In this document: piece after piece, positions 2,591 to 46,338 of the stretch | Layout of the letters: the number at the start of each line of letters is the position of its first letter | Position numbering within the stretch: the stretch's first letter is position 1 | Virus record (IMG/VR): IMGVR_UViG_2671180847_000008 | Reading direction: 5' to 3' (one strand) | Length of the DNA: 46,714 nucleotides | Source of the DNA: a virus | Taxonomy: Duplodnaviria; Heunggongvirae; Uroviricota; Caudoviricetes | Made by a program: the position numbers and the translations under genes | The notes under the pieces: model-generated | What the model was told of the DNA's origin: nothing | Databases searched by the model: none | Seen by the model: the letters and a program-made list of their open reading frames with translations, nothing else

Positions 2591-3163
2591 TCATAATTCT
2601 GTGCTGGTGGCAGGAATTAATTTCTGCCAGATAGCGGAAACATATTTTGCCTGATGACGGGCATCAGCCAGGGCGTTGTGCCGTTCGCCATCGAAAGGCA
2701 TGTCCATTTTGGGGTCGAATCCGATGGAACGCCCAAGCGTAACGATCGTGCGTACATCGTGGTCATTCCAGTACGCCCACGGGCAGATTTGTCCTGCTCG
2801 CTCATAAGCTCCACGTAAAATTACGTTGTCGAAGGTGGCCCCGTTACCCCAGACTTTTAAATATTTCGTATTGTCTGCGTGCCGGTTAATGAAATGGTTT
2901 AGTTCTGAGAGAGCATCGCTGATCGACAAAGTATCATCAATACAGATTGCAGCTCGCGCTTCAGGGCTTTGTTTCAACCACCACAGGATGGTATCGCCGT
3001 CAGGTGTAGCTCCTTGCTTCATAGCACTGTCCAGGCTGACAACCGCATAAAATTCTTGTCCGATGTCTCCGGTTTCTGGAGTGAAGAACACCGCGCCAAT
3101 GGAAACGATCGGTGCATCCTTATTTTTCCCCATCGTCTCAAGGTCGATCATTAAGTTGTTCAT
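2591..3163 (-). CDS. DnaQ-like 3'-5' exonuclease
   Basis: Start MNNLMIDLETMG with RBS GGAGG; DLET and HNAL-D motifs of DEDDh exonucleases; start overlaps the upstream stop (TGATG). Confidence 0.8.
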   Translation of the reverse strand: MNNLMIDLETMGKNKDAPIVSIGAVFFTPETGDIGQEFYAVVSLDSAMKQGATPDGDTILWWLKQSPEARAAICIDDTLSISDALSELNHFINRHADNTKYLKVWGNGATFDNVILRGAYERAGQICPWAYWNDHDVRTIVTLGRSIGFDPKMDMPFDGERHNALADARHQAKYVSAIWQKLIPATSTEL

Positions 3164-3885
3164 CACTTCACCTCCTGCGGCGGTTCCGGTAGCGGCATCC
3201 AATTGATTACATCGCATTCAGGGATGCTGATATCATCACCAAGCCATCCTTGACCTTCAGACCAGCATTGCACGTAATACCCGTATTCTGTGTTCACTAC
3301 GCACCACTGCCCGTCATCCGGCATTCGCTCACTACAGCTTATCCAACTATCCGGAGTTACCGGAGAGTTGCCATTTACATCGAAGTTTGGCTCTGCGTCC
3401 TGAACCAGGAGGATGTAACCATTCTTGGCAGTATCAAGTTCTAACGCCTCGGTGACGGTGCCGAAATAGCGATTACCTAAATCAGCATCACAAGTGCTTA
3501 CATCAATGGAAACTTCCATGCCTTCGATTAATTCTGGCAAGTTGTAAGTTTGGTTTACAGGTTGGCCTCCCTGAAGCATGGCGGCGCGGTGACACCAGAT
3601 AATCCAGCCAAGCGCCATATCCCATGCCATGTATTCTCTATCACCATTTTTTGCCCTGCGGCGATCTACAGATTCCCCGAAACGCTTCTCCATAAATAAT
3701 TCATAGGCTGCCCGTTCATCCGATACTGCTGCCAGCGATGCCAGTGCAATTTTAAATGCGGTAAGTATGTTGTTAACCACACCTATTTCGAATGCTATTT
3801 CACTACATACAAACGATTTATCGTCTATTATCGACTCAATTCCGGTAATCGTGTTCTGTAACCATTCTTTGGTAAGAGTATTCAT
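3163..3885 (-). CDS. Early-left hypothetical protein with DUF551-like C-terminus
   Basis: 240-aa ORF; RBS AAGGTG; C-terminal W-rich motif DGQWCVV...WMPLPEPP. Confidence 0.7.
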   Translation of the reverse strand: MNTLTKEWLQNTITGIESIIDDKSFVCSEIAFEIGVVNNILTAFKIALASLAAVSDERAAYELFMEKRFGESVDRRRAKNGDREYMAWDMALGWIIWCHRAAMLQGGQPVNQTYNLPELIEGMEVSIDVSTCDADLGNRYFGTVTEALELDTAKNGYILLVQDAEPNFDVNGNSPVTPDSWISCSERMPDDGQWCVVNTEYGYYVQCWSEGQGWLGDDISIPECDVINWMPLPEPPQEVK

Positions 3886-3887
3886 AA

Positions 3888-4079
3888 CTATTTCACCTTA
3901 ATCTCAACATTTCGCAGCTTTAGCTCTACTGGCAGGTCTGACTTTCCGGTTAATGCTAATGCGAGATTTTCTGGAGTAATGAGAGCAGTTATTGTTTTCC
4001 CCCTCGCCAGACGAATAATCATTCGTATTTCGCGATCGTCACATGCTCCTGGTCGAACAATTGATATTTGTCCGTTCAC
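3888..4079 (-). CDS. Small hypothetical protein (63 aa)
   Basis: GTG start with RBS AAGGAG 7 nt upstream; tightly packed in the operon. Confidence 0.5.
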   Translation of the reverse strand: MNGQISIVRPGACDDREIRMIIRLARGKTITALITPENLALALTGKSDLPVELKLRNVEIKVK

Positions 4080-8045: not shown

Positions 8046-8738
8046 TTAATTGTGTCGCTTAAGGGTTTGTGACTGACTGATTAAGACCTTTCCAAAGACC
8101 ATAAACCGGTGTTCGTTTTCGCTGGTAATTCCCCATTCGCGGTAAATCTGATTATCAGAAATTACCAGCAGTTTATCAGGTATCATTTGCAGTCGTTTGA
8201 CGTAAATTTTATCATCAAAACCAAATACATATATACCATCCCCATCAAACTGATTGATACTGATATCAACGAAGATGAGATCTCCTGGCTCAATGGTTGG
8301 ACACATACTGTCCCCACGAACGTTGATAACTTTAATGTGATTTGCTGGTCGTCCACCAAACATCGATACAGCATTATCAGTTCTGTATTCAATGGCATGA
8401 ATCACATCAATGACATCACCGCCCTGGATAAGGCCATTTCCCGCACTGGCACTGACATCCAGCATTTCAATACGGAATACATCCTTCACCTGCGCAACAT
8501 CCTCACTAATACTGTTTTTACATACAGTATTACTTTTGAAGTCTGAGGTAAAGAGATCAGCAATATCAACACCTAAGCTCCTGGCAATATTACTCAGGGC
8601 TTGTTCAGTGAATTGTTTCTGCTTACCTGTTTCCAGGCGTGAGATATTCGCCGCATCCACTCCTATTGCTTCAGCGAGATCGGCGATTTTCATGTTCTTC
8701 GCCTGGCGAAGTTGTCTGACTCGATTTCCTATGTTCAT
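8046..8738 (-). CDS. cI: CI-like prophage repressor (HTH plus S24/LexA-like peptidase domain)
   Basis: N-terminal HTH (KIADLAEAIGVDAANISRLETG); C-terminal GDSM Ser and VKRL Lys autocleavage motifs; ATG with almost no leader, as for lambda cI. Confidence 0.9.
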   Translation of the reverse strand: MNIGNRVRQLRQAKNMKIADLAEAIGVDAANISRLETGKQKQFTEQALSNIARSLGVDIADLFTSDFKSNTVCKNSISEDVAQVKDVFRIEMLDVSASAGNGLIQGGDVIDVIHAIEYRTDNAVSMFGGRPANHIKVINVRGDSMCPTIEPGDLIFVDISINQFDGDGIYVFGFDDKIYVKRLQMIPDKLLVISDNQIYREWGITSENEHRFMVFGKVLISQSQTLKRHN

Positions 8739-11826: not shown

Positions 11827-12315
11827 ATGAGTCTTTTGAATGAAGTTCAGAAATTCATTGAAGCCCATCCGGGGTGTACTTCCGGAGACATTGCGGATGC
11901 TTTTGCAGGTTACTCACGGCAGCGCGTTCTGCAGTCAGCAAGCAAGTTACGTCAGAGTGGGCGTGTGGCTCACCGTTGTGAAGGAGATACACGCAGACAT
12001 TTCCCACGCCTGACTGAGAGAGCGCAGGAGCCGGAACCACAACCAGTTCGTGAAACCAGACCTGTGCGCAATTTCTATGTCGGCACTAACGACCCGCGGG
12101 TGATTTTGTGCCTGACCCGCCAGGCGGAAGAACTGGAGTCCAGGGGCTTATACCGTCGTGCTGCAACGGTGTGGATGGCGGCATTCCGTGAAAGCCACTC
12201 CCAGCCAGAACGAAACAATTTTCTGGCGCGTCGTGAGCAGTGTTTACGGAAAAGCAGCAAGCGCGCTGCATCGGGTGAAGAGTGGTATCTGTCAGGGAAT
12301 TACGTGGGGGCTTAA
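11827..12315 (+). CDS. PerC-like transcriptional activator family protein
   Basis: C-terminal GLYRRAATVWMAAFRE resembles the PerC motif; RBS AGGGGG; start at the second Met. Confidence 0.5.
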   Translation: MSLLNEVQKFIEAHPGCTSGDIADAFAGYSRQRVLQSASKLRQSGRVAHRCEGDTRRHFPRLTERAQEPEPQPVRETRPVRNFYVGTNDPRVILCLTRQAEELESRGLYRRAATVWMAAFRESHSQPERNNFLARREQCLRKSSKRAASGEEWYLSGNYVGA

Positions 12316-12968
12316 TGAGTAATAAATATTGCCAGGCGCTGGTGGAACTGCGGAATAAACCAGCCCATGAACTGAAGGAAGTGGGCGATCAGTGGCGCAC
12401 GCCGGATAACATTTTCTGGGGAATTAACACCCTGTTTGGTCCGTTTGTTCTGGATCTGTTCACTGACGGTGATAACGCCAAATGTGCCGCGTATTACACG
12501 GCGGAAGACAACGCGCTGGCGCATGACTGGTCAGAACGTCTTGCGGAGCTTAAAGGTGCTGCCTTTGGTAATCCCCCATACAGCCGCGCCAGTCAGCATG
12601 AGGGGCAATACATCACCGGCATGCGTTACATCATGAAGCATGCCAGTGCCATGCGTGATAAAGGCGGGCGCTATGTTTTCCTGATCAAAGCTGCCACCAG
12701 CGAAGTGTGGTGGCCGGAAGATGCAGATCATATTGCTTTTATTCGCGGGCGTATTGGTTTTGAACTGCCTGCCTGGTTTATCCCGAAGGATGAGAAGCAG
12801 GTGCCGACAGGTGCGTTCTTCGCTGGTGCTATTGCTGTTTTCGACAAGACCTGGAAGGGACCGGCAATCAGCTACATCGGGCGCGATGAACTTGAGGCAT
12901 GTGGTGAGGCCTTTCTGGCGCAGGTTCGCCAGCAGGCAGAAAAACTGGTCAGGGAGATGGCGGCATGA
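12315..12968 (+). CDS. Phage Dam-like N6-adenine DNA methyltransferase
   Basis: NPPY catalytic motif (GNPPYS); TAATG overlap with the upstream gene. Confidence 0.8.
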   Translation: MSNKYCQALVELRNKPAHELKEVGDQWRTPDNIFWGINTLFGPFVLDLFTDGDNAKCAAYYTAEDNALAHDWSERLAELKGAAFGNPPYSRASQHEGQYITGMRYIMKHASAMRDKGGRYVFLIKAATSEVWWPEDADHIAFIRGRIGFELPAWFIPKDEKQVPTGAFFAGAIAVFDKTWKGPAISYIGRDELEACGEAFLAQVRQQAEKLVREMAA

Positions 12969-13291
12969 CGACGTTAACTCAATGCCAGCAGCAGGTGCTG
13001 GATATGCTGATTTCTTATCAGAAAGAACGTGGCTTCCCGCCAACCAATCAGGAGGTGGCAACCATGCTGGGATACCGTTCAGTGAATGCAGCGGTGGAGC
13101 ATCTTCGCGCACTGGAGAAAAAAGGCGTCATCACGATAAAGCGTGGCGTGGCCCGGGGGATAACGCTTCATACCGCGGTGAAGGACGACGACAGCGAGGC
13201 GGTCGGGATTATCCGCGCACTGCTTGCCGGTGAGGAAAACGCAAGGCTGCGTGCAACCCACTGGTTACATGAGAGGGACCTGAAAGTATGA
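12965..13291 (+). CDS. LexA N-terminal DNA-binding-domain homologue lacking the peptidase domain
   Basis: Aligns with E. coli LexA residues 1-70 (MKALTARQQEVFDLI...[34 protein letters not shown]); only 108 aa, no S24 domain. Confidence 0.75.
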   Translation: MTTLTQCQQQVLDMLISYQKERGFPPTNQEVATMLGYRSVNAAVEHLRALEKKGVITIKRGVARGITLHTAVKDDDSEAVGIIRALLAGEENARLRATHWLHERDLKV

Positions 13292-13677
13292 AGCTGATCC
13301 TGCCTTTTCCGCCCAGCGTGAACACGTATTGGCGACACCCCAACAAAGGGGCGTTTGCTGGTAAGAGCCTGATAAGCTCGGCGGGGCGAAAATTCCAGAG
13401 CGCGGCGTGCGCAGCAATAGTTGAGCAGTTACGTCGTCTGCCGAAACCAACGTCGGCACCTGCTTCAGTGGAGATCGTGTTGTTTCCTCCGGATAACCGG
13501 ATCCGCGATCTGGACAACTATAACAAGGCGCTGTTTGACGCCCTGACCCATGCGGGTGTGTGGGAAGACGACAGTCAGGTGAAAAGAATGCTGGTGGAGT
13601 GGGGACCGGTTATCCCGAAAGGGAAGGTCGAGATCACTATCAGTAAGTACGAGAAAACGGCGGGTGCAGCCGCCTGA
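13288..13677 (+). CDS. rusA: RusA Holliday-junction resolvase
   Basis: MKLILPFPPSVNTYWR N-terminus and DLDNYNKALFDALTHAGVWEDD catalytic region; ATGA overlap. Confidence 0.9.
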   Translation: MKLILPFPPSVNTYWRHPNKGAFAGKSLISSAGRKFQSAACAAIVEQLRRLPKPTSAPASVEIVLFPPDNRIRDLDNYNKALFDALTHAGVWEDDSQVKRMLVEWGPVIPKGKVEITISKYEKTAGAAA

Positions 13678-13696
13678 TCAAGAGGAGAAACGAAGT

Positions 13697-14506
13697 ATGA
13701 ATAATCTGATGGTCATTGATGGTATTGAAGTTCGTCGTGATGCTTATGGGCGTTACAGCCTGAACGATCTGCATCGCGCAGCAGTAGCATCTGGTGCAAA
13801 TGCCAGAACCAAGGAGCCGGGAAAGTTTCTTTCCAGCCAACAAACTGTTGAGCTTGTTCATGAATTGACCAACACCCAGAATTTGGGTGTTGACCCGGTG
13901 AGTGTGATTCATGGGGGAAATGAACGGGGAACGTATGTCTGCAAGGAACTGGTGTATGCCTATGCAATGTGGATCAGCCCGTCATTCCATCTGAAGGTGA
14001 TCCGTACTTTCGATATGGTAACCAGCGCACCGGAAAAATTATCCGGACAGGCTGCTGACAAGATGCAGGCTGGCGTGATCCTGCTGGACTTTATGCGCCG
14101 GGAGTTAAACCTGTCTAACTCTTCAGTGCTTGGTGCTTGTCAGAAACTCCAGGAGGCTGTTGGCTTACCGAATCTGGCACCGCGCTATGCCATTGATGCT
14201 CCTGCTGATGCACACGATGGCTCAAGTCGCCCGACACTGTCACTGAGCGCACTGCTGAAACAGTATGGTATACGCCTGACGGCTAATCAGGCATATCACC
14301 AGATGGTGAAACTGGGGATCGTCGAGCAGCGCGAACGATACAGCCGTACCGCGATTAACAACATCAAAAAATTCTGGTCGCTGACAGCGAAAGGTTGCAT
14401 GTTCGGCAAGAACATCACCAGTCCCGCAAATCCGCGCGAGACGCAGCCGCATTTCTTCGAATCCCGATTCCCTGAGCTGTTAAAGCTGCTCGATACCGTT
14501 CATTGA
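13697..14506 (+). CDS. KilA-N domain protein (antirepressor-like)
   Basis: Start MNNLMVIDG with RBS GAGGAG; KilA-N-like N-terminus (VRRDAYGRYSLNDLHRAA...KELVYAYAMWISPSFHLKV). Confidence 0.75.
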   Translation: MNNLMVIDGIEVRRDAYGRYSLNDLHRAAVASGANARTKEPGKFLSSQQTVELVHELTNTQNLGVDPVSVIHGGNERGTYVCKELVYAYAMWISPSFHLKVIRTFDMVTSAPEKLSGQAADKMQAGVILLDFMRRELNLSNSSVLGACQKLQEAVGLPNLAPRYAIDAPADAHDGSSRPTLSLSALLKQYGIRLTANQAYHQMVKLGIVEQRERYSRTAINNIKKFWSLTAKGCMFGKNITSPANPRETQPHFFESRFPELLKLLDTVH

Positions 14507-14507
14507 G

Positions 14508-15503
14508 GTGACCGTGAGAGCGCTACTGACCCCTGAAATTGCCCCGCGTATGGGGATCGTATTGTTCAGGCCAGGTTCAGAGCTGATGCCCCTGTTTATG
14601 CAGGGGCGTGTCCTGCTGGAGCCTGAGCCGGAGCGTTATTCATCTTTCGCCAGTGGTGCCGTTCCGGCGGCATCACAACCGCTGGCGGATGATCTTGCCG
14701 TTCGGGCCGTGTTCCGCAATGAGGCAGTGATCCGTCGTGCTGGTGGCGTGGAATGTCTTGAAAGCTGGTTACTTCGTGAAAAAGGCTGCCAGTGGCCTCA
14801 TTCCGACTGGCACAGCGAGAACATGACCACAATGCGACACGCTCCGGGTGCAATCCGTCTGTGCTGGCACTGCGATAACCAGCTGCGCGATCAGTTCACG
14901 GAACGGCTGGAATCAATGGCAACGGATAACTGTGCCCGCTGGGTGTTGTCTGTTGTGCGTCGGGATCTCGGTTTTGATGACAGTCACGTTGTGACAATGC
15001 CGGAACTGTGCTGGTGGCTGATTCGTAATGATCTGGCGGATGCCTTACCGGAAAGTGCAGCCCGTAAGGCACTGAGATTACCGAAGCCTGTTGTGCCGTC
15101 TGTTACCCGGGAAAGTGACCTTGTGCCTTCGGTTCCTGCCACCAGCATCATCCAGGATAAGGCGAAAAAGGTGCTGGCGCTGAAAGTGGATCCGGAGTCG
15201 CCGGAGTCTTTTATGTTACGCCCAAAACGTCGCCGCTGGGTTAATGAAAAGTACACGCGCTGGGTTAAGACACAGCCGTGTGCATGTTGTGGAAAGCCCG
15301 CTGATGATCCCCACCACCTGATAGGTCACGGTCAGGGTGGAATGGGAACAAAAGCGCATGACCTTTTTGTGTTGCCTTTGTGCAGAAAGCATCACGACGA
15401 GCTGCATGCGGATACCGTGGCATTTGAAGAGAAGTATGGCTCCCAGCTGGAGCTGATATTTCGTTTTATCGATCGTGCGCTGGCAATTGGCGTGCTGGCC
15501 TGA
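14508..15503 (+). CDS. DUF968-family protein with HNH-like Cys/His motif
   Basis: [21 protein letters not shown]...CRKHHDELH near the C-terminus; start codon uncertain (GTG at 14508). Confidence 0.65.
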
Positions 15504-15520
15504 TTTTGTGGAGAAAGTTG

Positions 15521-15886
15521 ATGCGTGATATTCAAATGGTTCTTGAACGTTGGGGGGCATGGGTGGCAAATAATCACGAGGATGTCACTTGGTCGTCTAT
15601 TGCTGCAGGATTTAAAGGACTAATCCCTTCAAAAGTAAAATCCCGCCCGCAATGTTGTGACGATGACGCGATGATCATTTGTGGATGCATGGCTCGCCTG
15701 AAAAAGAACAACAGCGATTTGCACGATTTATTAGTGGATTATTATGTAGGTGGTATGACGTTTATGGCGCTTGCCCGTAAACATGGGCGTTCTGATTGCT
15801 GGGTTGGGCGTTTATTGCAAAAGGCTGAAGGTGTAGTTGATGGCATGTTAATGATGTTAGAAATTGAGCTAGAGATGGATCGTTAG
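15521..15886 (+). CDS. quuD: Late-gene antiterminator Q (QuuD-like)
   Basis: [22 protein letters not shown]...[16 protein letters not shown] recalled as the DLP12 QuuD family; RBS GGAG. Confidence 0.8.
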
Positions 15887-15928
15887 AAGACCTCTTATTG
15901 AGAGGGTAATTGAATCAGTTTAATGTGT

Positions 15929-15958
15929 GGGGAGTCGATTTATTCTCCCCATTTTATT
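15929..15958 (+). terminator. Terminator hairpin just downstream of Q
   Basis: GGGGAG-N10-CTCCCC followed by ATTTTATTT. Confidence 0.55.
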
Positions 15959-15970
15959 TAATTAATTTAC

Positions 15971-16417
15971 TTAAGGTTTTAATTCATCAAGACGTTGTTG
16001 GATAGTGTTTTTGCTTGCGTTGTCTGTTATAGCCATTTGTTGTACTTGCCCCATTGCCATTTGAGTTTCCATCCACATATCGGCCCACACTTTTGTATCG
16101 TTATTAACTTGAGCGATAGTAAATCTGACTTTTGATACCGGGGTTGTTGAATAGGCATTGCCGATTAACATTTGTCCAAAAACAGCAGACCCGCCTTCCA
16201 GTTCTTTACCACATATAACACTGCTGTTATCCGCGTTGTAAATTATCAACCCTCTACTATTGCAGTAATTCACAAGGGCATCTTTGACTTTATCTTTTGT
16301 CGTATTTTGATAAACCCCCTCAGGTTTTCCTGATTGAGTTTTCTTTATCAATGGTACGGAAGAAGTACAACCTGAAATGATAGTTGCGCTAAGTAATAGT
16401 ACAGTCATTTTATTCAT
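15971..16417 (-). CDS. Lipoprotein of unknown function (moron), antisense to the late operon
   Basis: Signal peptide with lipobox LLSATIISGC; AT-rich; candidate promoter TTGATT-N17-ATAATT on the minus strand (16479-16451). Confidence 0.7.
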   Translation of the reverse strand: MNKMTVLLLSATIISGCTSSVPLIKKTQSGKPEGVYQNTTKDKVKDALVNYCNSRGLIIYNADNSSVICGKELEGGSAVFGQMLIGNAYSTTPVSKVRFTIAQVNNDTKVWADMWMETQMAMGQVQQMAITDNASKNTIQQRLDELKP

Positions 16418-16482
16418 GTTTCTTATCCATTGTTAAGGGCATACCTACACAATTATTTTTATTGGAGATGAATAATCAACCG

Positions 16483-16510
16483 TTTACAATCGTAAAAAAT
16501 CAAATATGCT
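16483..16510 (+). promoter_or_regulatory. Candidate rightward sigma70 promoter (possible late promoter); speculative
   Basis: TTTACA-N16-TATGCT, about 35 nt upstream of a hairpin/T-tract. Confidence 0.25.
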
Positions 16511-16543
16511 GTTAAGAGTGGTTACTTCGCCACACAACTTAAA

Positions 16544-16566
16544 CCCGCCGCTGAGCGGTTTTTTTG
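16544..16566 (+). terminator. Weak rho-independent terminator
   Basis: Short GC stem (GCCGC-TGA-GCGGT) followed by seven T. Confidence 0.4.
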
Positions 16567-16687
16567 TACCTGTAAACTTGGTGCAGTACAGTAAACACGC
16601 TGGTGGTCGTGAATACTGACTTTTTATCTTGCTGGCTTTTTAGACAAGAGTTATTGGTATGTCATGTTAACCAGAAGGGAAAAAGAC

Positions 16688-16891
16688 ATGCTAAAACAGC
16701 AAGATATGACAGAAACCGCCGCCGCAGTCCTTCATTTCTTACCTGCTGACAAGTGGGTAACGCCACGCATGATGACGAGAACTACCGGAGTAAGCGAAGC
16801 CCGGTGCCAGTTAATACTGACTCAGTTAGTTCTGGCGGGTCTGGCGAAGGATAACGGTGGGTACGGGAATAAATTCAGACGCTGCCAGTAA
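16688..16891 (+). CDS. Small hypothetical protein, possibly winged-helix DNA-binding
   Basis: ATG at 16688 (MLKQQDM) with a purine-rich RBS; the track ORF begins 24 nt earlier. Confidence 0.45.
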   Translation: MLKQQDMTETAAAVLHFLPADKWVTPRMMTRTTGVSEARCQLILTQLVLAGLAKDNGGYGNKFRRCQ

Positions 16892-17041
16892 TGGCGGTTT
16901 CCTGCTGTGAAAATGGGCGGCTGGTGGGTGTTGGTAGCACCTGCCAGCCATTCGCTCATGCTTACTGGTCACAAGCGAACCACGGCCCACTGCTTTAGCG
17001 CAAAAGCAGAGTGAGCCTACCAGAGTTACGCTTACTGATCC

Positions 17042-18094
17042 ATGAAAAATACTGTAAAAATAAACAGTGTTGATTTAATCAACGCTGATTGCCTGCATTT
17101 TATTCAGTCCCTGCCTGATGATTCCATTGACCTGATTGTTACCGATCCGCCGTACTTCAAGGTGAAACCCAACGGCTGGGACAATCAGTGGAAAGGGGAC
17201 GAAGATTACCTTAAGTGGCTGGACCACTGTCTGGCCCAGTTCTGGCGGGTGTTAAAACCTGCCGGAAGCCTTTACCTGTTCTGTGGGCATCGCCTGGCAT
17301 CTGATATTGAGATCATGATGCGCGAACGTTTCAACGTGCTTAACCATATCATCTGGGCGAAGCCGTCCGGACGTTGGAATGGGTGTAATAAAGAAAGTCT
17401 GCGCGCATATTTTCCTGCCACAGAGCGCGTTCTGTTTGCTGAACATTACCAGGGGCCATATCGCGGCAAAAGTGACGGCTATGCGGCAAAAGAAAGGGAA
17501 CTCAAACAGCACATAATGGCACCGCTGATATCGTATTTCAGGGATGCTCGTGCCGCACTGGGTATAACGGCAAAACAAATTGCCGAAGCCACAGGTAAGA
17601 AAAATATGGTTTCCCACTGGTTTGGTGCCAGTCAGTGGCAGTTGCCGAATGAGGCTGACTATCGGAAGTTACAGGCACTGTTTTCCCGTATAGCGGCAGA
17701 GAAGTTTCAGGAACAACAACTGGAACAACCACACCACCAGCTGGTGGCATCTTATGATTCACTGAATCGTAAATATTCTGAATTGCTGGATGAGTTTAAA
17801 TCTCTCCGGCGTTATTTCTCCGTATCAGTCTCCGTGCCTTATACCGATGTCTGGATGCATAAACCCGTTCAGTTCTACCCGGGTAAACATCCGTGTGAGA
17901 AACCGGCGGATATGCTCAGGCAAATAATCAATGCCAGTAGTCGACCTGGTGATCTGGTTGCTGATTTTTTTATGGGATCCGGTTCCACAATAAAAGCAGC
18001 AATGGCGCTGGGGCGTCGGGCCTTAGGTGTTGAGCTTGAGTCAGAGCGGTTTAACCAGACAGTGAAAGAGATAAACGAGCTGGTGGGGAAATAA
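17042..18094 (+). CDS. Orphan DNA methyltransferase (N6-adenine or N4-cytosine class)
   Basis: DPPY motif (VTDPPYF) and AdoMet-binding FxGxG (FFMGSGST); no adjacent endonuclease gene. Confidence 0.85.
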
Positions 18095-18100
18095 TCTGGT

Positions 18101-18125
18101 GGCCACGTCAGGTGGCCTTTTTATT
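18101..18125 (+). terminator. Terminator immediately upstream of the lysis cassette
   Basis: GGCCAC-GTCAG-GTGGCC hairpin followed by TTTTTATTT. Confidence 0.6.
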
Positions 18126-18161
18126 TCCATTACACAGCACCCGCATCTGCGAGGTGGGGTT

Positions 18162-18377
18162 ATGAAATCCATGGATAAGTTAACAACGGGTGTCGCCTAT
18201 GGCACCTCAGCAGGTAGTGCCGGGTACTGGTTTTTACAGTTGCTCGATAAAGTCACGCCCTCACAGTGGGCGGCAATAGGTGTGCTGGGTAGTCTGGTGT
18301 TTGGCCTGCTGACGTATCTGACAAATCTTTATTTCAAGATTAAAGAAGACAAGCGTAAGGCTGCACGGGGAGAGTAA
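18162..18377 (+). CDS. Pinholin, phage-21 S-like, with dual-start motif
   Basis: [29 protein letters not shown]...[11 protein letters not shown]; two Met starts (M1, M4) as in S21; RBS GAGGTGGGG. Confidence 0.9.
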
Positions 18378-18381
18378 TTCA

Positions 18382-18732
18382 ATGACTCAAAACTATGAAC
18401 TGATTGTGAAAGGGATCCGCAATTTTGAGAATAAAGTTACGGTAACTTTAGCGTTACGGGACAAAAACCGCTTTGACGGTGAAATTTTTGACCTGGACAT
18501 CTCGCTGGACCGTGTTGAAGGTGCCGCGCTGGAGTTTTATGAGGCAGCAGCCAGAAGGAGCATCAGACAGGTCTTCCTGGATGTTGCTGCCGGGTTATGT
18601 GAAGGGGATGAGCAGTCGCCGGAAAAGCGCCCCGTAATTTTAGATGCGCAGAATGTGTGGATAACCTACAAAGGAAAGCTACCAGGAAGAATTACTGATT
18701 CTCTGAAGACTCCTCCGGAATCACAACCTTAA
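18382..18732 (+). CDS. Hypothetical soluble protein inserted between holin and endolysin
   Basis: ATG with RBS GGAGAG; 116 aa; no transmembrane segment evident. Confidence 0.6.
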   Translation: MTQNYELIVKGIRNFENKVTVTLALRDKNRFDGEIFDLDISLDRVEGAALEFYEAAARRSIRQVFLDVAAGLCEGDEQSPEKRPVILDAQNVWITYKGKLPGRITDSLKTPPESQP

Positions 18733-44114: not shown

Positions 44115-45212
44115 TCAAGAGGTCTTATTTCTGCTCCTTTGGAGCTCTTCAAAACGATTATGTAAAGATTTCGGATACAGTTCGGTATATACCTGCCATA
44201 GCACGTTTAATGAACGATGCCCTGTAACCTGAGCGACTTCCTCAATACTAAAACCAGCCTCAAATAAGCGACTTGCCCCTTCTCTACGCAAATCATGGTA
44301 TCGCAGATCTTTAATACCTAATTTGCTTCTTACCCTCTGAAATCCTGCAGTAACAGAAGTGCTGTTATATGGAAAAATGAATTCCGATTTTTTGGGCTGT
44401 CGTTGGACGATATCCCAGGCTTCCCCAAGCAAGGCTACTTTCATGTGGTTGCCTTCCTTTTTGCGTGGATCTTTCCTGTCTCTTACGAGTATAGATTTTT
44501 GTTCCTGGTCGAGATCTTCCCATCGTAACCGGCATACTTCTCCGATCCGCATACAGGACCACACAGAAAATTTGAGGATATCAACGAACGGAATTTTTGA
44601 GCATTTATGAGTAGATCGTTGTTGAAGGCCTTCAATGAGCATGTCCAGTTCATCAGATGCTGGTCTACGATTACGACGGTTTGATTTACCAATCAAACCA
44701 AGTTTAAGTAGATATGGGCGAGCGCTTTTCGCCGGGTTTGATGTGTAATTAATTCCGTATACAGGTTTGGCCGCATCCAGAACACTGCCAAGATAACTAA
44801 CATCGTGGCTGACTGTTGCTGGACCTGCACCAGCGTTGTTTCTTAGCCTGCAATGTTCAATTACGTCATTTTCTGTCAGTTCAGATAGTTTGATCGCGGA
44901 GATGTCACTATCCATAAGCAGTTCCAGCACATATCTTTTAGTACGGCCTGCTTTACCTCCGGCATTTGGGTCATTTAAATATTTGTGTAGTAAGTCACGG
45001 ACTGTAAGTCCGTCAACTGCATTTGATGATGGAATGCCATATAGATCTAATTCCATCACTTTCTGTGTTCCCCATGTTTTGGCATGAGCATGTTTAGGGA
45101 ATGTTTTGCTTTCCCTGTAAGTGATAACACCTTTTTCTTTGATAATCACATTACAGCGATAGCGTGGTGTGCCATCGGATTTTAGTCGTTTCTCTATGTT
45201 ATAGTACGCCAT
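44115..45212 (-). CDS. int: Tyrosine integrase (dusA-targeting type)
   Basis: C-terminal catalytic region with HDLRREGASRLFEAG and VTGHRSLNVLWQVYTELY (His-x-x-Arg, Tyr nucleophile); adjacent to the attachment site in dusA. Confidence 0.9.
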   Translation of the reverse strand: MAYYNIEKRLKSDGTPRYRCNVIIKEKGVITYRESKTFPKHAHAKTWGTQKVMELDLYGIPSSNAVDGLTVRDLLHKYLNDPNAGGKAGRTKRYVLELLMDSDISAIKLSELTENDVIEHCRLRNNAGAGPATVSHDVSYLGSVLDAAKPVYGINYTSNPAKSARPYLLKLGLIGKSNRRNRRPASDELDMLIEGLQQRSTHKCSKIPFVDILKFSVWSCMRIGEVCRLRWEDLDQEQKSILVRDRKDPRKKEGNHMKVALLGEAWDIVQRQPKKSEFIFPYNSTSVTAGFQRVRSKLGIKDLRYHDLRREGASRLFEAGFSIEEVAQVTGHRSLNVLWQVYTELYPKSLHNRFEELQRSRNKTS

Positions 45213-45231
45213 TACACGACCTCGTTATTTC

Positions 45232-45267
45232 GGGTTCCCAGAAAACGTGGGAACCTGTGCGGGAACC
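45232..45267. repeat. GGGAACC repeats between int and the att core (candidate arm-type sites)
   Basis: GGGTTCCC (45232-45239), GGGAACC (45249-45255), GGGAACC (45261-45267); a further GGGAACCC at 1229-1236 lies on the phage side of attL. Confidence 0.4.
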
Positions 45268-45300
45268 TAACGCGAGAAAAATAGCCTGAAATGTTCAAAA

Positions 45301-45410
45301 ATGCACGATAATCCTGAAACACAGAAAACTAATCAAACCAGCGTGATGCCTGAAAAAACTGGCGCTTACTGGAGTTCTCGGTTTAGCATTGCTCCTATGC
45401 TCGACTGGAC
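45301..45410 (+). repeat. attR region: prophage-supplied replacement 5' end of dusA
   Basis: About 80% identical to 1071-1180; encodes a diverged N-terminus ([35 protein letters not shown]) fused in frame to the rest of dusA. Confidence 0.8.
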
Positions 45411-46338
45411 GGACAGACATTGCCGCTATTTCTTGCGTCTGCTTTCCCGCAATACGTTGCTGTATACCGAAATGGTGACCACAGGGGCGATTATTCACGG
45501 TAAAGGTGATTATCTGGCGTACAGTGAAGAAGAACATCCGGTAGCGTTGCAACTGGGCGGTAGCGATCCGGCGGCGCTGGCGCAGTGTGCAAAGCTGGCA
45601 GAAGCGCGCGGATATGATGAGATCAACCTGAATGTCGGCTGCCCGTCTGACCGGGTGCAGAACGGCATGTTTGGTGCGTGTCTGATGGGTAATGCGCAGC
45701 TGGTTGCCGACTGCGTGAAAGCGATGCGCGATGTGGTGTCGATTCCGGTGACGGTGAAAACGCGTATTGGCATCGACGACCAGGACAGCTATGAATTTCT
45801 CTGCGATTTCATCAATACCGTTTCCGGCAAAGGCGAGTGTGAGATGTTCATCATCCACGCACGTAAAGCCTGGCTTTCGGGGTTAAGCCCGAAAGAAAAC
45901 CGTGAAATCCCGCCGCTCGATTATCCGCGTGTGTATCAACTGAAGCGTGACTTTCCGCATCTGACAATGTCGATTAACGGTGGTATCAAGTCGCTGGAAG
46001 AGGCCAAAGCACACCTGCAACATATGGATGGCGTGATGGTCGGGCGCGAGGCGTATCAGAATCCGGGTATTCTGGCGGCGGTAGACCGGGAGATCTTTGG
46101 TTCCTCGGATACCGATGCCGATCCGGTGGCGGTAGTGCGCGCCATGTATCCGTACATTGAGCGTGAACTCAGCCAGGGGACGTATCTCGGCCATATTACC
46201 CGGCATATGTTGGGCTTGTTCCAGGGTATTCCTGGCGCGCGGCAGTGGCGGCGTTATTTAAGTGAAAATGCCCATAAAGCGGGTGCAGACATTAATGTGC
46301 TGGAACACGCGCTCAAACTGGTGGCGGATAAGCGTTAA
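45301..46338 (+). CDS. dusA: tRNA-dihydrouridine synthase A (chimeric: phage-derived first ~35 codons)
   Basis: Full-length 345-aa ORF of the Dus family with catalytic Cys region (NLNVGCPS); promoter and 5' end lie in prophage DNA. Confidence 0.9.

Follow-up and report, generated by a model that had tools for sequence, protein, structure and literature searches.

The 46,714-nucleotide stretch of viral DNA analysed here (IMG/VR record IMGVR_UViG_2671180847_000008, Caudoviricetes; hereafter the window) represents a lambdoid Escherichia coli prophage that carries two different orphan N6-adenine methyltransferases. The reading that we consider likely is that the activity of both enzymes is confined to lytic growth, when they modify the DNA of progeny phages ahead of packaging. 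A first-pass annotation of the sequence had located one gene in the replication/nin region and the other in the island between the antiterminator gene Q and the lysis genes. Both open reading frames (ORFs) are present at these positions, inside the dusA-integrated element, and their nature was confirmed by family models and catalytic motifs. The two genes are:

12315 to 12968, plus strand: orphan N6-adenine DNA methyltransferase of the PF05869/TIGR01712 'phage Dam' type, 217 amino acids (aa), in the early operon
17042 to 18094, plus strand: 350-aa orphan adenine methyltransferase of the beta class, M.EcoGII (non-specific) family, in the predicted late operon

In the scenario that we favour, the 217-aa enzyme would be made through the early rightward operon once the repressor is lost, and probably methylates a short site. 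The 350-aa enzyme, which would be kept silent in the lysogen because it is toxic, would be transcribed only upon read-through by Q, late in infection. Its context-free adenine methylation would then blunt the many Type I, II and III restriction systems of the next host that are blocked by N6-methyladenine. The timing of expression, the activity of the exact proteins and the benefit against restriction are our inferences, and the non-specific activity, the toxicity and the silence in lysogens are taken from papers on close relatives.

The product of the larger gene matches the Pfam model PF01555 (N6_N4_Mtase) end to end over residues 29–341 (E 2.8e-42), and displays the motif order of the beta class, with DPPY at residues 35–38, a central recognition domain and FMGSG at residues 310–314. 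It aligns over its full length with M.EcoGII (350 versus 349 aa), with 282 of 349 residues identical (81%, an approximate value) and 91% similar, and is 89.6%, 87.5% and 71% identical to the reconstructed ancestors Anc291, Anc289 and Anc284, respectively. The M.EcoGII and ancestor sequences were taken from Supplementary Table S1 of Ochiai et al. (PMC11551740), a PDF that was machine-read, and family membership was judged from the pairwise identities. Because of this full-length identity to M.EcoGII and to tested ancestors, the larger enzyme is filed in the M.EcoGII family, within the range covered by ancestors with experimental activity, and by homology it is predicted to methylate adenine regardless of sequence context. 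The first-pass label of 'DPPY-class methylase' is correct with regard to the motif, but the protein belongs to the M.EcoGII family and is not a generic site-specific methylase. Solved structures gave distant matches to the catalytic halves only (such as M.RsrI, M1.MboII and CcrM), and a search of the paper texts for peptide strings of the methyltransferase gave no match. An enzyme of the M.EcoGII family is sold as a commercial reagent. Around 100 records of Stx2a-converting phages, such as TL-2011c and ArgO145, match residues 316–350 only, with 66% identity; this match could represent a remnant of the gene or a different methylase that shares the C-terminal end.

The relatives of the larger enzyme have been characterized biochemically. 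M.EcoGII, which comes from a prophage of E. coli O104:H4 C227-11, methylates adenine whatever its sequence context (Murray et al. 2018, PMC5778455). In vitro, methylation reaches up to 99% of dA; many restriction enzymes are blocked, constitutive expression is harmful to the cell, and the enzyme is not expressed in the C227-11 lysogen; no signal of methylation by M.EcoGI or by M.EcoGII was seen in the lysogen, and near relatives of M.EcoGII make up a very large family in E. coli prophages and phages (PMC5778455). Non-specific methylation has been reported for M.EcoGI also. M.EcoMV, which is 99% identical to M.EcoGI, gave no motif in strain EC958 and was judged inactive by reverse transcription PCR (RT-PCR), and O111 strains with M.EcoGI/GII homologues gave GATC and CTGCAG motifs only. 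Methylation of RNA in vitro is also known for M.EcoGII; all ancestors tested methylated both DNA and RNA in vitro, with no discernible motif in the RNA methylation by Anc291, and the nearest site-specific relative named is the outgroup M.PflMI (PMC11551740). Protection of phage DNA from restriction, which the first-pass annotation had proposed for the two genes, is the accepted role of this family (PMC5778455, PMC12707154), and the anti-restriction reading is reasonable. The annotation had also held that a lysogen lacking any new methylation motif would refute its proposal. Because the M.EcoGII family methylates any adenine context, no motif is to be expected from the larger enzyme, and since a negative outcome is expected either way, a lysogen methylome without a new motif cannot refute the anti-restriction reading.

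The timing of the larger gene was examined from the elements that surround it:

15506 to 15886, plus strand: late-gene antiterminator Q of the Q21 type (PF06530, E 2.1e-51; solved Q21 structures 6P18 and 6JNX, E 7e-9)
16483 to 16510, plus strand: candidate late promoter pR' (TTTACA, 16-nucleotide spacer, TATGCT), putatively assigned from a consensus scan
16545 to 16566, plus strand: candidate tR' terminator, a short G+C hairpin followed by T7
16688 to 16891, plus strand: winged-helix-like ORF of 67 aa (phrog_331, E 4.6e-26), a frequent upstream companion of M.EcoGII-like genes
18101 to 18125, plus strand: terminator-like hairpin and T-run between the methyltransferase stop and the holin start (−12.2 kcal/mol, z −2.4)
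18162 to 18377, plus strand: essD-type holin that opens the lysis cassette (coordinates converted from the RefSeq annotation of a 99.9% identical locus)

The stretch from Q to the methyltransferase was aligned across four phages, namely the window, phiP27, Stx2_EH2246 and mEp460. In the window, phiP27 and Stx2_EH2246, which have the same 126-aa Q, the −10 region is conserved together with the ~30 bases transcribed first; this does not hold for mEp460, whose late regulator is a different protein of 251 aa. By contrast, the terminator hairpin and all downstream sequence are common to the four phages, and the changes in the tR' stem of phiP27 and Stx2_EH2246 preserve pairing. A pR'-tR' unit with a promoter-proximal part matched to its own Q would be expected to look like this: the promoter-proximal part varies with the type of Q, and the terminator and downstream sequence are shared. 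At the 3' end of the stem the window has a T where the other three phages have a G (GCGGT versus GCGGG), and its stem is shorter.

The placement of the methyltransferase in the late transcription unit follows from the holin gene directly downstream. The order Q, small winged-helix-like ORF, methyltransferase and holin is found in the window, in strain Q5 and in mEp460, and the small ORF, a methyltransferase 56–61% identical to that of the window and the holin occur in the same order in Yersinia phage P840 and in PhiR46_1. In phiP27 and Stx2_EH2246, an M.EcoGII-like gene (87% and 94% identical to M.EcoGII, respectively) is situated between the pR'-tR' unit downstream of Q and the tRNA-stx genes. 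Expression of stx2 in Stx phages depends on pR' and Q. We infer late, Q-dependent expression of the larger gene and, from its position behind the candidate pR'-tR' unit together with the data on relatives, its silence in the lysogen.

Between Q and the candidate late promoter lies one gene on the opposite strand:

15971 to 16417, minus strand: lipoprotein-like ORF of 148 aa with the signal MNKMTVLLLSATIISGC, without a Pfam match (phrog_3152)

This ORF has its own promoter-like site (16436–16407) and a hairpin at 15929–15948, and looks like a moron expressed in the lysogen. In phiP27, a gene for a GIY-YIG nuclease occupies its place.

The smaller gene product is recognized by Pfam PF05869 (Dam; E 9.7e-46; score 156 bits, cut-off 28.1) and by the NCBIfam equivalog TIGR01712 (phage_N6A_met; score 255.6 bits, cut-off 97.05). 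The catalytic motif IV, (D/N)PP(Y/F/W), is present as NPPY at residues 86–89, and N86, P87, P88 and Y89 are invariant across 20 homologues. The exact sequence is named 'phage N-6-adenine-methyltransferase' in public databases, and the 217-aa product can confidently be predicted to be an N6-adenine methyltransferase. The gene overlaps its neighbours by 1–4 nucleotides at the start and stop codons (11824/11821, 12315/12315, 12968/12965 and 13291/13288), and these overlaps join the replication gene, a PerC-like gene, the Dam-like gene, the gene of a LexA N-terminal domain (LexA-N) protein and RusA. Because of these overlaps the Dam-like gene is assigned to the early rightward operon, whose members are predicted to be translationally coupled. 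Its position between the PerC-like gene and the block LexA-N, RusA, KilA-N, DUF968 and Q agrees with the replication/nin placement of the first-pass annotation.

The term 'Dam-like' in that annotation stands as a family name, but it does not carry GATC specificity. Identity to M.EcoVT2Dam (VT2-Sakai orf32), whose specificity is given as GATC in a REBASE-based table, amounts to 31% over 144 residues (217 versus 175 aa), and because of this low value GATC specificity is unproven for the window enzyme. Judged by its family, GATC is the most probable target, and a different target for this subfamily appears rather unlikely. The closest phage homologues beyond the SfV group, with ~46% identity, are found in chi-like Salmonella and Klebsiella phages. 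GATC sites in the window are neither avoided nor enriched beyond other 4-mer palindromes (observed/expected 0.75), which is uninformative either way. Sequence and profile searches of the PDB detected no solved-structure relative of the family, and an AlphaFold2 prediction from 20 close homologues gave no usable model (predicted local distance difference test score, pLDDT, of 39).

A cryptic relative is found in E. coli K-12, where YfdM (91 aa, prophage CPS-53; positions 8113–8388 of locus L009) matches the window enzyme's first 89 residues (window positions 12315–12581) with 100% identity. YfdM ends at the NPPY motif and, as judged from this alignment, is a truncated remnant of the Dam-like gene. 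A preprint reported that overproduction of YfdM was required before the T1-type phage SW1 gave full activation and lysis, and proposed methylation of the packaging site. Because YfdM is cut at NPPY, a catalytic role is doubtful, and the effect described in the preprint is hard to reconcile with it. Several RefSeq phage records name PF05869 methyltransferases 'phosphoadenosine phosphosulfate reductase', a label that seems to derive from phrog_33262, a fusion profile of 495 positions of which 283–492 correspond to the Dam-like part. Phage Eeyore (positions 1492–2826 of locus L004) encodes a 444-aa protein with the Dam domain at residues 19–199 and an unassigned C-terminal half, followed by another methyltransferase.

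The gene downstream of the Dam-like gene is:

12965 to 13291, plus strand: LexA N-terminal-domain-only protein of 108 aa (PF01726, E 2.9e-19), overlapping the Dam-like stop by 4 nucleotides

This member of the early operon has no peptidase domain, and could bind SOS boxes without being cleavable. It was considered as a recognition partner of the Dam-like enzyme and rejected, as it is a neighbour and not a conserved partner. Dam-like homologues of 39–65% identity in Klebsiella, Salmonella, Aeromonas and Serratia phages are followed by unrelated genes without a Pfam match and without LexA-N; by inspection, the C-terminal extensions of homologues of 285–327 aa (Cronobacter, Atlantibacter and a 322-aa relative) do not look like LexA-N. 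The Dam::LexA-N fusions in the protein collection form clusters of one or two members with deletions.

The orphan status of both enzymes, as proposed in the first-pass annotation, was borne out. When eight other ORFs between 9.6 and 16.9 kb were scanned with PADLOC, none gave a hit to a restriction endonuclease model, and an adjacent cognate endonuclease gene, as expected of a Type II restriction-modification system, does not accompany either methylase. The genes flanking the two methylases are those for the PerC-like protein, LexA-N, RusA, the small winged-helix-like protein and the holin. Apart from RusA and the DUF968/HNH protein, which are ordinary nin-region genes, there is no nuclease nearby; a DUF968 gene (ydfU) also precedes Q in Stx2_EH2246, where no Dam-like gene is found in the stretch examined.

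The small ORF upstream of the larger gene shows weak matches to TrmB and MarR_2 and is 53% identical to L23 of phiP27. It is present in 57 phage records, apparently of the same phage types. A scan of IMG/VR for diverged loci returned solely copies of 83–100% identity, and a scan of species-representative genomes was used instead. Among the 35 species-level loci obtained, whose methyltransferases are 44–82% identical to that of the window, a homologue of the small ORF lies 73–268 nucleotides upstream on the same strand in 16 and is absent in 19, some of which have methyltransferases of 72–82% identity. The upstream ORF is kept in Citrobacter, Scandinavium, Xenorhabdus, Photorhabdus, Proteus, Providencia and Pseudocitrobacter, and is missing in Kosakonia, Enterobacter, Rosenbergiella, Vibrio and others. 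Because it is absent from 19 loci and M.EcoGII is active alone, the small protein is not an obligate subunit. A role as a controller that sets the timing of the toxic enzyme, or as a subunit restricting what this enzyme acts on, is a doubtful proposition. If the small protein did narrow the targets, the 'non-specific' activity of the catalytic protein alone would not equal the behaviour of the enzyme in the phage.

The window as a whole is a lambdoid E. coli prophage that is integrated at dusA and belongs to the SfV/mEp460/cdtI/PhiR40_1 type, with the following landmarks:

1 to 708: DUF2713 gene, left prophage flank or edge
8046 to 8738, minus strand: cI-like repressor
44115 to 45212, minus strand: tyrosine integrase at the right prophage end (region 44115–46338), directly adjoining dusA, a dihydrouridine synthase gene

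The left flank in strain Q5 is lexA-dinF-yjbJ-zur, and the limits of the prophage fit the known dusA integration site. Gene order begins with left-arm genes, the cI-like repressor, a cII-like gene, Rha and the replication gene. It continues through the PerC-like gene, the Dam-like gene, LexA-N, RusA, KilA-N, DUF968, Q, the small island and the second methyltransferase, and closes with holin, lysozyme and spanin followed by terminase, head and tail genes and the integrase.

The module that includes both methylases (12000–18400) is 99.9% identical to the prophage of strain Q5. It is 98% identical at the DNA level to PhiR40_1 and PhiR55_1, which are plaque-forming temperate phages, and mEp460, cdtI and SfV are 97–99% identical to it across most of its length; mEp460, with a near-identical module, is also plaque-forming. 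The 6.4-kb module is covered to at least 80% in 524 of 5426 complete E. coli genomes (~10%). Taken alone, the larger gene has a match in 1263 of these genomes (23%) and the Dam-like gene in 2120 (39%). Both exact protein sequences are already found in public databases under methyltransferase names, and the same gene pair is present in sequenced, RefSeq-annotated phages from SfV onward. The two-methylase arrangement is common and already described; it is real but ordinary.

A comparison with known systems places both enzymes among well-defined relatives. The larger enzyme shares with M.EcoGII, and likewise with M.EcoGI, the beta-class motif order, a similar length, a prophage location and the lack of a nuclease. 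The homologue in Stx2_EH2246 also shares the order Q, small ORF and methyltransferase, with the difference that the window gene directly precedes the holin whereas there the tRNA and stx genes follow. The 217-aa enzyme resembles M.EcoVT2Dam and the Dam group of T1-type phages in its PF05869/TIGR01712 assignment, its NPPY motif, its small size, its nin-region location and its orphan state. SfV, mEp460, cdtI, PhiR40_1/PhiR55_1 and the O157 Stx2c phages have the same pair in the same order, with 95–99% DNA identity over most of 12000–18400; these relatives differ in the type of Q and in what is inserted between Q and the late promoter. A distant case is Yersinia phage vB_YenS-P840 (locus L011), which has an early PF05869-like enzyme of 31% identity (364–996) and a late M.EcoGII-like enzyme of ~60% identity (3001–4074) just before the holin, with a HicAB toxin-antitoxin pair between the two methylases.

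The same strategy, in which a temperate phage carries at the end of its regulatory region a gene for broad and nearly context-free modification of adenine, is represented by Mom of phage Mu and by Hia5/Hin1523. Mom, too, stays silent in the lysogen and is toxic upon artificial expression (PMC3299994). Mom produces N6-(1-acetamido)-adenine, however, and the Mom and Hia5 proteins are unrelated or distantly related to the larger enzyme. Assignment of the larger enzyme to the promiscuous Hia5/Hin1523 type was rejected, as these proteins constitute a separate alpha-class subfamily with the opposite motif order. Another resemblance concerns M.EcoPA8orf6770P and PNB-2: there, too, a prophage enzyme bearing the annotation of a DNA adenine methylase has a small gene for a winged-helix protein just upstream (PMC10810198). 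M.EcoPA8orf6770P is an MT-A70 protein with DPPW, encoded near the integrase end and active on 16S rRNA as a 1:1 heterodimer (PMC10810198). Identity with this Stx-prophage rRNA methyltransferase was rejected, since the window enzymes carry NPPY and DPPY in PF05869 and PF01555 and are positioned elsewhere.

Several points weigh against lytic-phase modification of progeny DNA by the two enzymes. The in vivo benefit of M.EcoGII-type methylation for the phage is presented as likely, and not as demonstrated, in the papers on the family, and both the activity and the expression of the window proteins are predicted from relatives. The machine-read M.EcoGII sequence has small reading errors, which make the identity value approximate, and the divergence of 19% includes 17 of the 78 residues of the predicted four-helix recognition domain and could alter specificity. 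The tR' hairpin of the window is weak (−6.7 kcal/mol, z −1.3), as 25 of 200 shuffled sequences fold as well, and a weak promoter-like site lies at 16746–16773 inside the small ORF, so that some Q-independent expression is possible. As for the smaller enzyme, the sole characterized GATC enzyme compared is only 31% identical to it, and the host E. coli is already methylated at GATC, which would leave a GATC-specific phage enzyme with little protection to add.

Some of these points lend themselves to another explanation, in which the lysogen produces one or both enzymes and these alter host expression by methylating the chromosome, as the first-pass annotation had suggested in proposing an epigenetic effect. 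Gene regulation is known for orphan methyltransferases, Dam and CcrM among them, the tR' hairpin is weaker than in related phages, and the weak internal promoter-like site could supply some transcript. Against this, the relatives are silent: M.EcoGI and M.EcoGII in the lysogen, constitutive expression having harmed the cell (PMC5778455), M.EcoMV by RT-PCR, and the homologues in the O111 strains by their methylomes. Moreover, both genes belong to lytic-cycle operons held off by the lambdoid repressor or by tR', and site-specific regulation is impossible to encode by context-free adenine methylation. The epigenetic proposal was therefore not upheld, and we regard it as very improbable. Slightly less remote, though still improbable, is an RNA substrate, with modulation of translation or prophage induction after the manner of M.EcoPA8orf6770P and PNB-2, in which case the ORF at 16688–16891 would be the partner. 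M.EcoGII and the reconstructed ancestors do methylate RNA in vitro, a prophage 'DNA adenine methylase' is known to prefer 16S rRNA together with a small winged-helix protein encoded just upstream (PMC10810198), and a winged-helix-like ORF precedes the M.EcoGII-like gene at nearly half of the species-level loci. The Stx-prophage enzyme, however, differs in family (MT-A70 with DPPW) and in position (near the integrase end), M.EcoGII alone is highly active on DNA, and the small ORF is absent from the remaining loci.

A more serious contender concerns the smaller enzyme alone, which may serve the phage's own DNA transactions through full methylation of fast-replicating DNA, be it for packaging-site recognition, for replication control or to escape cutting by mismatch repair. 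The Dam-like gene has replication and recombination genes as neighbours and shows translational coupling with them, phage P1 needs GATC methylation at pac, the preprint on YfdM and SW1 proposes methylation of a packaging site, and little protection would be added if GATC, already covered by host Dam, were the site. On the other hand, the truncation of YfdM at NPPY makes the catalytic interpretation of the preprint doubtful, and many related lambdoid phages, such as Stx2_EH2246, have no Dam-like gene. We regard this role as a reasonable rival to anti-restriction, though a tentative one, and it is compatible with late modification of progeny DNA by the larger enzyme. Finally, the two genes might be decaying, non-functional passengers of a defective prophage. 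The truncated gene of K-12 and the frequency of truncated or fused versions in databases point in this direction, but neither frame is shortened, the catalytic and cofactor motifs of both are intact, and all residues that do not vary among six homologues, down to 48% identity, are retained. In addition, the prophage retains integrase, repressor, Q, lysis, terminase, portal, capsid and tail genes, and the modules are 98% identical in plaque-forming phages. Decay is thus the least credible of the explanations considered, and modification of progeny DNA during lytic growth, before packaging, remains the reading that we consider likely.

None of these findings is new in kind, and the family of the larger enzyme has already been characterized biochemically. 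The analysis nevertheless bears on how such genes are named and studied. The 350-aa protein, often recorded as a 'site-specific DNA-methyltransferase', is better described as an M.EcoGII-family, probably non-specific adenine methyltransferase, and the 'phosphoadenosine phosphosulfate reductase' label is wrong for the PF05869 enzyme. Lysogen methylomes will not show the function of these enzymes, and the right sample is virion DNA after induction. Because 23% and 39% of the complete E. coli genomes match the larger and the Dam-like gene, respectively, late context-free adenine methylation may be widespread among temperate coliphages, including Stx phages, as a means of crossing restriction barriers.

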